Positions 1,093 to 3,738 of a stretch of DNA of 9,194 nucleotides are shown here, piece by piece. How positions within the stretch are numbered: the first letter of the stretch is position 1; every line of letters starts with the position of its first letter. The stretch is from a virus (taxonomy: Duplodnaviria > Heunggongvirae > Uroviricota > Caudoviricetes). The stretch is taken from IMG/VR virus record IMGVR_UViG_2526164630_000024. One strand, written 5' to 3'. The notes beneath the pieces are model-generated. The model had not been told where the DNA came from. It did not search any database and saw only the letters and a list, made by a program, of their open reading frames with translations. The translations under genes and the position numbers were made by a program.

Positions 1093-3738
1093 ATGGCAGG
1101 TAATTTTGCCGATCTGACAGCCGTGCTGACACTGGATTCTGCCCGTTTTTCTGAAGAGGCAGCGCGGGTAAAAAAAGAGCTGGGTGAAACCAGTGCGCTT
1201 GCTGATTTGATGTCCGGGAAAGTCAGTCAGTCTTTCAGAAAACAGGCTGACGCTGCTGAGCAGAGTCTGAGCCGACAGGCGCTGGCTGCACAAAAAGCCG
1301 GGATATCAGTCGGACAGTATAAGGCTGCCATGCGCACACTGCCCGCACAGTTCACGGATATTGTCACTCAGCTTGCCGGTGGTCAGAATCCCTTCCTTAT
1401 CATGCTGCAGCAGGGGGGCAGATCAGCGATTCATTCGGTGGACCGCTCAGCCTGCTTACCCTGCTGAAGGAGGAACTTCTCGGGATCAGGGATGCCTCTG
1501 AATCATCAGAGGAGTCGCTGTCAGATACGGCAAATGCACTGGCTGAAAATGCCCGGAATGCCGGTGAGCTGGGACGATTTATGTCGGTGGCCCGTGTGGC
1601 GGCAGGTGGCGGGGTTGCCGTACTGGCCGCGCTTGCTGCCGCCGCCTGGCAGGCAGAGCAGGCTGACCGGGCCTTATTGCGTTCACTGATCCTGACCGGA
1701 GGGGCGGCTGCCACCACAACGGCAGAATTGTGGAAAATGGCCGGGGTGATCAGCGATGAAGCCGGTGGTGGTATCAGACAGGCGGCAGAAAATCTGGCCC
1801 GTCTGGCAGAAAGCGGGAAATATACCGCCGGGCAGCTACGGATCATGGGGGAAACCTCGTCAGAGATGGCTGCAGACGGTGGGGGACGATGCCGGGAAGG
1901 TGGAAAAAGCCTTTGAAGGGATTGCAGCAGATCCGGTGAAGGCGCTGGCCTCCCTGAATCAGCAGTATAACTTCCTGAGCGTTTCCCAGTTACGCCATAT
2001 TGATGAGCTTGAGCGCACGAAAGGTAAACAGGCTGCGGTGACGGAGGCGATGTCCCTGTTTGCGGATGTCATGAATGCACGTCTGGAGCAACTTGATAAA
2101 GCGGCCACGCCGGTGGAAAAAATCTGGGACGATGTTAAAACCTGGACTTCTGACGCATGGGCATGGATAGGTGATCATACACTGGGGGGCACTCAGTCTG
2201 ATCACTGACGTGGTGGCCGGAACCGTTGAACAAGTGAAGCTGCTGCTTGTGCAGGGGGATCTGGCGCTGGCTGAATTTTATTCAGTCAGCCTGGGAAACG
2301 ACAAAGAATGTGCCCGGCGTTGGTGCGTTGTTTGGTGAACTGGCAGAAGAGAACCGCGTATTTATTGAGAAAACAAAACGCGATGAACTGGCGCTGAGAA
2401 AATCCATTGCGGAACGGGATGCGCGTATACGCCAGGGGGAAATGGGGTACATCAACCGCTCGCGTGCAACAGGCGTCAGCAAAGGTCCAGGGCAGCAGGA
2501 AGCCGTCAGCCGTCTGGCTGAAGAGCTGACAGGTAATAAGCATACATCACCGAAAACGCGCTCTGCCGGGGAGAGGGAAGAGGAGCAGGCAAGAGAAGCT
2601 CTGCTTGCCCTTGAAGCTGAGCTCAGGACGCTGGAAAAACACAGCGGTGCGAATGAGAAAATCAGCCGGCAGCGCCGTGATTTATGGAAGGCGGAAAGTC
2701 AGTATGCGGTCCTGAAAGAGGCTGCCACGAAACGACAGTTATCTGAGCAGGAAAAATCCCTGCTGGCCCATGAGAAAGAGACGCTGGAGTACAAACGCCA
2801 GCTGGCTGACCTGGGCGACAAGGTTGAACACCAGAAACGCCTGAATGAGCTGGCACAGCAGGCGGTGCGGTTTGAAGAGCAGCAGAGCGCGAAGCAGGCC
2901 GCCATCAGCGCAAAAGCCCGCGGTCTCACTGACCGTCAGGCGCAGCGGGAGTCTGAAGCGCAGCGTCTTCGGGACGTGTACGGTGATAATCCGCAGCGCT
3001 GGCCAAGGCCACAGCGGCACTGAAAAACACATGGGCGGAGGAAGACAGCTGCGCGGAAACTGGATGGCCGGGCTGAAGTCCGGCTGGGGCGAGTGGGCGG
3101 AAAGTGCGACGGACAGTTTTTCGCAGGTTAAAAGTGCTGCCACGCAGACCTTTGACGGTATTGCACAGAATATGGCGGCGATGCTGACCGGTGCAGAGGC
3201 AGACTGGCGGGGATTCACCCGTTCGGTGCTGTCCATGATGACAGAAATCCTGCTTAAACAGGCCATGGTGGGCATTGTCGGGCGTATCGGCAGCGCCATT
3301 GGCGGTGCTTTCGGTGGTGGTGCATCTGCTTCCTCGGGGACGGCCATTCAGGCTGCGGCGGCGAACTTCCATTTCGCGACCGGAGGATTTACGGGAACCG
3401 GCGGCAAATACGAACCTGCCGGGATAGTCCACCGCGGGGAGTTTGTCTTCACGAAAGAGGCAACCAGCCGGATAGGCGTCGGCAACCTGTACCGTCTGAT
3501 GCGCGGCTATGCGGAAGGTGGTTATGTGGGTGGTGCCGGAAGTCCGGCGCAGATGCGGCGGGCGGAAGGTATTAATTTTAATCAGAACAATCACGTGGTG
3601 ATTCAGAACGACGGCACCAACGGACAGGCGGGGCCGCAGCTGATGAAGGCGGTGTATGACATGGCCCGCAAGGGGGCGCAGGATGAGCTCCGGCTGCAGT
3701 TGCGTGATGGCGGTATGTTATCGGGGAGCGGGCGATGA
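1093..3738 (+). pseudogene. H: Tail tape measure protein H, full-length locus but reading frame switches at least 7 times
   Basis: ATG at 1093 preceded by GGAGG at 1080-1084. Translation starts MAGNFADLTAVLTLDSARFSEE...QSLSRQALAAQKAGISVGQYKAAMRTLPAQFTDIVTQLAGGQ, as in lambda gpH. The lambda-like sequence continues through successive frames and ends ...HVVIQNDGTNGQAGPQLMKAVYDMARKGAQDELRLQLRDGGMLSGSGR* at 3736-3738. Frame junctions lie at about 1413-1418 (G6), 1881-1885 (G5), 2184-2189 (G6), 2289-2298, 2994-2997 and 3047-3051. The locus is 882 codons against 853 aa for lambda H as I recall it. Confidence 0.85.

Follow-up and report, generated by a model that had tools for sequence, protein, structure and literature searches.

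Frame breaks in a lambda-like tape measure gene of an Escherichia coli DEC11C draft contig are probably errors of the deposited consensus

Slipped-strand contingency loci are known from Neisseria, Haemophilus and Helicobacter. Tracts of the contingency type have also been described in P. acnes, where the variation of G/C tracts is consistent with the clades (PMC4746626). The lambda G/G-T programmed −1 frameshift is another frame change, real and conserved, which occurs in the tail operon. Frameshifts in tail genes are also a feature of the defective lambdoid prophages of enterohaemorrhagic E. coli (EHEC), of which we take the Sp/SpLE prophage pool of O157 Sakai as the example: they have the same tail module as the DNA described here, and single frameshifts of the H gene are annotated in many finished genomes. 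Finally, frames can be broken by indel errors of draft assemblies, and the breaks described below resemble these in being one-base indels private to one assembly, far more numerous than substitutions and located partly at G runs, in a short contig of a multi-copy prophage region whose sister contig is damaged at different positions.

An exact look-up of its proteins identified the window that was analysed (9,194 bp) as the entire contig AIGX01000080.1 of the assembly GCA_000250155.2, as confirmed by sequence identity. It is a short contig of the 2012 draft genome of E. coli DEC11C. The DEC genomes are presumably IGS drafts of the 454/Illumina era, which carries no weight in the argument. The strain DEC11C is O45:H2 and belongs to clonal complex 20 (PMC8924650, PMC6028524).

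The window is filled by a lambda-like prophage tail module in the order V-G-T-H-M-L-K-I-J, from the 3' end of V to most of J. The domains recognized by Pfam in the called genes are Big_2, Phage_TAC_2, Phage_tail_T, TMP_2, Tape_meas_lam_C, Phage_min_tail, Phage_tail_L, Prok-JAB/NLPC_P60, Lambda_tail_I and the GpJ domains; a scan of the window with Rfam gave no match. The tape measure gene H (1093..3738, + strand) was called as five fragments, which carry TMP_2 and Tape_meas_lam_C. These domains and their place in the V-G-T-H-M-L-K-I-J synteny fit a lambda-like tape measure, but H as deposited is not one continuous ORF. In the complete-genome relatives, H is a single intact gene of 2,646 nt. The H region has 98% DNA identity to the H gene of Stx1/Stx2-converting phages such as VT1-Sakai, and the best identity to the prophages in 641 complete E. 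coli records (O157, O145, O111, O103 and O45 strains) is 98.6%.

Comparison with these sequences suggests that the frame breaks are errors of sequencing or assembly in the deposited consensus and not mutations of the prophage, a reading to which we give a probability of about 0.86. The true H gene of DEC11C is most likely intact, except possibly at one G7 tract.

To define the lesions, the window was aligned first with eight intact relatives and then with locus L017, the nearest relative (98.9% identity). H contains six 1-nt indels, at 1413, 1859, 2184, 2276, 2996 and 3048 (−1, +1, +1, +1, −1 and −1, respectively). Their net effect is zero, so the H region is as long as in the relatives. According to the original prediction, three of the breaks coincide with the G runs GGGGGG at 1413-1418, GGGGG at 1881-1885 and GGGGGG at 2184-2189. 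The runs are indeed found there, and two of them are altered: on the + strand, the G6 tract at 1413..1418 is G7 in most relatives (hence a loss, in the codons CAG CAG GGG GGG CAG, which encode QQGGQ), and the G6 tract at 2184..2189 is G5 in the relatives (a 1-nt insertion). The G5 run at 1881..1885 (+), on the contrary, is unaltered; it is G5 in every relative and is not a lesion. The true second break of H is a G inserted at 1859 (+; CCTC[G]TCAG), between C1858 and T1860, outside any run and 22 nt upstream of the G5 run. The break was misplaced because only the zone of frame overlap could be seen, and the G run inside it was chosen; H contains eight G runs of at least 5, so that the presence of one inside an overlap zone is unsurprising. 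The directions of change that had been deduced (one loss and two gains of a G) agree with the alignment to intact relatives. A fourth break in the same stretch had been overlooked: the T4 run at 2276..2279 (+) is T3 in the relatives, a 1-nt insertion. The last two lesions of H (2995..3048, +) are deletions, GG becoming G at 2996 and a lone T being lost between 3047 and 3048, and they lie on either side of the point at which the contig takes on the allele of another DEC11C contig, described below.

The 76-mer from 1822 to 1897 matches 641 of 641 complete-genome records at 75 of its 76 positions, the sole difference being the extra base at 1859, and the exact 76-mer occurs in none of the 641 complete E. 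coli records. The G at 1859 copies neither neighbour and is therefore not a product of slippage. The exact 76-mer with G6 at 2184 is likewise found in 0 of 641 complete E. coli records, and a scan of viral contigs gave no match to this allele; the equivalent tract is G4 in the O26 strain RM8426, a length seen once. Compared among related genomes, the run at 1413 varies in its reported length, some of which may be due to long-read miscalls, G6 at 2184 is seen only in the window and the run at 1881 is invariant.

When the six indels are undone, H becomes an 881-aa ORF which no stop interrupts and which differs from the nearest relative at 9 residues. Eight of these nine differences stem from substitutions present in other relatives, and the one private residue is K481N. 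Exact look-up of the repaired 881-aa protein, with either residue at position 481, returned no identical protein, and no intact twin of the mosaic sequence in DEC11C or elsewhere. A 224-aa C-terminal fragment of H present on 13 other contigs was considered as support for the breaks at 2996 and 3048 and was rejected: the alignment shows that those genomes carry a different, upstream deletion of a C at the equivalent of window position 2921, which exposes the same internal ATG.

The change at 1413 is the only lesion of the contig that recurs widely elsewhere. The exact 76-mer with G6 is present in 31 of 648 complete E. coli records, and the protein collection lists the truncated product of 124 aa in 38 blocks, of which ten include contigs longer than 1 Mb. 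G6 is also found on a second, different N-terminal background of H, in DEC9E, in Japanese complete genomes and in an assembly of Shigella dysenteriae. An exact-pattern scan of one genome per species gave no match to the G6 allele. In the finished genomes with G6, H is annotated as "frameshifted" and every neighbouring gene is intact.

These observations leave room for a reading in which the contig is ridden with errors but the change from G7 to G6 at 1413 is a real slipped-strand mutation that inactivates H in DEC11C. We regard it as possible, but somewhat doubtful. The frequency of G6, its occurrence on at least two N-terminal backgrounds of H and the integrity of the neighbouring genes speak for it. 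Moreover, the O26 strains RM8426 (USA) and 02E060 (Japan) both have G6 at the orthologous locus, and the presence of the allele in orthologous prophages sequenced by two laboratories argues for real inheritance; it is common to both DEC11C contigs as well. However, the nearest relatives of both DEC11C contigs read G7, and two paralogues that both read G6 in an error-prone assembly look more like a systematic undercall than like two real slips. In addition, the O145 sister isolates RM9872 and RM9873-C1, which read G7 and G6, respectively, show no other difference over 7 kb. This pair, together with the G4 tract of RM8426, indicates that some of the calls may be long-read homopolymer errors, and that the tract may be miscalled in finished genomes too.

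Judged from the sequences compared, the G7 tract is a recurrent hot spot, be it biological, technical or both. A tentative proposal, which we put slightly short of even odds, is that this tract (QQGGQ) of EHEC-type lambdoid prophages would be a natural slippage hot spot, which independently inactivates tail assembly in many lineages. With the same reservation, its scope would be about 5% of the complete genomes with this type of H, at least two H backgrounds, and O26, O111, O121, O145, O157 and Shigella dysenteriae. If the hot spot is natural, Stx-type prophages would lose their transmissibility along a predictable route. Should the G6 calls be real, they are a simple marker of lambdoid prophages of Shiga-toxin-producing E. 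coli that are tail-defective and non-transmissible; otherwise, the tract is a systematic miscall site which inflates the pseudogene counts of finished genomes. Slipped-strand mutation, which the original prediction had kept as an option for the G runs in general, is still live only for the tract at 1413, whose G6 form recurs in other assemblies, finished genomes included.

Considering the whole contig, exactly 20 one-base indels distinguish it from the nearest relative, 15 deletions and 5 insertions. They are located at positions 57, 654, 756, 1413, 1859, 2184, 2276, 2996, 3048, 6091, 7269, 7274, 7277, 7297, 8311, 8525, 8794, 8819, 8837 and 8956, where the length of the run in the intact sequence is, in the same order, 4, 2, 1, 7, 0, 5, 3, 2, 1, 4, 2, 3, 5, 0, 2, 2, 1, 1, 2 and 0. 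All the genes are on the + strand. The 3' end of the major tail gene V (1..280, +; identified from the annotation of relatives and Pfam Big_2) has A3 at 57-59 instead of the A4 of the relatives, a 1-nt deletion. The tail chaperone gene G (294..686, +) is cut to 130 aa by the loss of one C at 654, where the relatives have CC. Before the ORF called for the T part of the G-T tail assembly protein (765..1049, +; Pfam Phage_tail_T), one C is missing between 755 and 756. M (3735-4064, +), L (4064-4762, +), K (4773-5516, +) and I (5513-6091, +) are intact, the stop codon of I being the site of a change from A4 to A3 at 6091-6093. The tail tip gene J (6331..9194, +), which runs off the end of the contig, has indels at 7269, 7274, 7277 (G5 to G4), 7297 (insertion of a T), 8311, 8525, 8794, 8819, 8837 and 8956 (insertion of a T).

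Runs of at least 5 hold three of the 20 indels, all in G runs, and make up 2.6% of the bases, which is a modest, 6-fold enrichment (binomial P = 0.015). In H alone, two of the six indels are in such runs. Only 3 of the 45 runs of this length are altered, and the 42 others, including a T7 and two A7 tracts, are untouched, while at least 11 of the 20 indels affect runs no longer than 2. The inserted G at 1859 and the inserted T at 7297 and 8956 differ from both neighbours, and in four deletions the base lost was an unrepeated one; these seven events, non-templated or at unrepeated bases, cannot be produced by replication slippage. A pure homopolymer explanation, which the original prediction had already called incomplete, indeed accounts for little of the set: 17 of the 20 indels are outside runs of at least 5 and 7 are at unrepeated bases. 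For draft-assembly errors too, the 17 window indels outside long homopolymers are a departure from the textbook signature, which is confined to homopolymers. What the breaks share is not the G runs but their presence in a draft contig of low quality, whose indels are scattered over three of its gene blocks. A mismatch-repair-deficient lineage was considered and rejected; such strains concentrate indels in long runs and have raised transitions, and neither is seen here.

The indels could also be real, if the prophage is truly decayed: once a first hit had inactivated it, H, G, T, V and J would have gained frameshifts in vivo, in part by slipped-strand mispairing at G runs. We consider this very unlikely, one reason being the spectrum of private changes. 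With 12 to 29 relatives available per position, the contig has only two private substitutions, at 1251 (synonymous) and at 2537 (K481N), whereas about 19 of its indels are private. In mutation-accumulation studies, spontaneous mutation of E. coli yields about 10 substitutions per indel. If the 20 indels were real, a couple of hundred private substitutions would therefore be expected; the excess of private indels is the reverse of the natural spectrum, which argues for an artefact. The 6-fold enrichment of indels in G runs of at least 5 (three of 20) is in line with decay, but seven events are not of the slippage type. Nor are nonsense or scattered missense changes left when the indels are reversed, as is expected of a gene that is otherwise pristine: H has no stops, and restoring the C of G gives a protein of 140 aa which has an exact match on 18 other contigs.

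The products of the breaks are, in addition, unique to this contig, which also supports an artefact. The k-mers that span the indels are absent, for 18 of the 20, from all the 45 other loci that were collected. The fragments that result from the breaks at 654, 1859, 2184, 2276 and 2996, and the fragments of J, each occur, in a set of about 15 billion proteins, only on this contig; this includes the 130-aa product of G. Apart from G6 at 1413, no lesion is seen in other assemblies, the change of the A run at 6091 being shared only with the other DEC11C contig.

It should be kept in mind that the lambdoid prophages of these strains are often defective, and that their tail genes do carry real frameshifts. 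Single frameshifts of H and J are common to independent assemblies: the deletion of a C at the equivalent of window position 2921, in H, is common to four independent assemblies, and the deletion of a G at the equivalent of 7438, in J, to three assemblies. These observations are on the side of decay. However, the real frameshifts of this gene family recur across independent assemblies, and those of the window, except G6 at 1413, do not. An EHEC lambdoid prophage has one or a few real defects, which related strains have in common; the contig, by contrast, has 20 in 9 kb, all but two unique.

A second contig of DEC11C (L006; 9,635 bp; its proteins EHX00353 and EHX00359 bear the name DEC11C) covers the same tail region. 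It is 97.2% identical to the window, and the two end at the same alignment column. Compared with its own nearest relative, to which it is otherwise 99.5% identical, L006 has 16 one-base gaps and 14 private substitutions. Only two lesions are common to L006 and the window, the G tract at 1413 and the A run at 6091. A paralogous contig of the same assembly thus has the same kind of damage at different sites, which favors an artefact and is difficult to reconcile with decay.

The window differs from its nearest external relative by 79 mismatches, and 49 of the 79 carry the base of the other DEC11C contig. Patches with the L006 base, at 3005-3349 and 7864-8873, border or contain the indels 2996, 3048 and 8311-8837. 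Such patches are compatible with a consensus whose reads were few or came from a mixture of paralogous prophages, although they would equally result from gene conversion in vivo. Related strains have up to five copies of the H segment per genome, and at least two short contigs of the DEC11C assembly carry it. If consensus errors are the cause, the presence of several near-identical lambdoid tail modules per strain would have led the reads to be divided or mixed among short contigs. Each consensus would then derive from few or mixed reads and would retain the indel noise of the raw reads, made of miscalled lengths of G runs and of random gains or losses of single bases elsewhere. No indel is found between 3049 and 6090, in the M-L-K-I block of about 3 kb (P = 0.0003 under a uniform spread). 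Uniform error would not predict this indel-free block, which we tentatively attribute to locally better read support, an added assumption.

For the set of indels as a whole, the option of sequencing errors, which had been proposed for the G runs, is therefore strongly supported. It is very probable that the "minor tail H domain proteins", the "host specificity J domain proteins" and the truncated G annotated in DEC11C (EHX00733 to EHX00748) are artefacts; they should be kept out of tallies of pseudogenes or of novel small proteins, and not be cited as signs of prophage decay.

That the G tracts are functional switches, either phase-variable contingency tracts or programmed frameshift sites that control the production of the tape measure, is highly implausible: the length of the first tract does vary among genomes and the third has one G4 variant (RM8426), but in about 95% of the records the ORF of H is continuous, with G7 and G5, the out-of-frame product has only 15 codons before a stop and no alternative ORF is conserved, the tract at 1881 never varies, and the tract at 1413 simply encodes Gly-Gly in the conserved QQGGQ motif. 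The resemblance to contingency loci is that a coding G7 tract in H varies by one base among genomes, which turns the frame off. The off state, unlike that of a contingency locus, is found in only about 5% of the records; the tract gives no sign of reversible switching or of a selected function, its Gly-Gly lying in the body of a gene for a structural protein. Neither of the other tracts of the original prediction behaves in this way. Most of the frame changes, moreover, are not gains or losses of a repeated base within a tract.

The site of the lambda programmed −1 frameshift, GGGAAAG, is present in the window at 659-665. It is unrelated to the breaks of H, and the private deletion of a C which cuts G is located 5 nt upstream of it.

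Of 648 complete E. coli records, 31 have six G in place of seven at the first G tract of the tape measure gene H (window 1413-1418; related tail loci L034-L039). The G6 allele is present on at least two H backgrounds, and the tail operons which carry it usually have no other defect. It is common to orthologous O26 prophages from two laboratories, and in the O145 sister isolates RM9872 and RM9873-C1, the G7/G6 difference at this tract is the only one between them.

The second tract (window 2184-2189) has six G in the window and five in all other relatives except the O26 strain RM8426, which has four (position 4306 of its tail locus, L036). 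This tract therefore also varies once outside the window, in the opposite direction. The homopolymers of the nearest intact relative show a strong strand asymmetry: its coding (+) strand has 18 G runs of at least five bases, versus no C run of that length.

Some frameshifts are shared among independent assemblies. The deletion of a C in H, at the equivalent of window position 2921, is common to four related tail loci (L040, L041, L045 and L046), and the deletion of a G in the tail tip gene J, at the equivalent of position 7438, is common to L040, L041 and L043. Both look like real, inherited prophage defects.

Another DEC11C contig, L006 (IMGVR_UViG_2526164630_000016, 9,635 bp), covers the same tail module, stops where the window stops and shares 97.2% identity with it. 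L006 has a separate set of 16 one-base gaps, along with 14 substitutions that are private to it, which indicates that the DEC11C assembly contains at least two low-quality repeat contigs. In two patches, 3005-3349 and 7864-8873, the window carries the allele of L006 and not that of its nearest external relative, and 49 of the 79 mismatches to the latter are the base of L006. These patches arose either when prophages underwent gene conversion with each other in the cell, or when paralogous reads were mixed during assembly.

No other contig of the protein collection has the window's intact L protein (4064-4762), although the only two private substitutions of the window are both in H; L is thus a unique mosaic of known alleles.

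The intergenic region between I and J (6092-6330), for which no Rfam match was found, contains a perfect 8-bp hairpin (6102-6128) and what looks like a terminator at 6257-6280, a GC-rich 10-bp hairpin with a T run behind it, just upstream of J. A 39-amino acid ORF lies between the two hairpins (6136-6255); it has a ribosome-binding site of its own and is also called in the relative L043.
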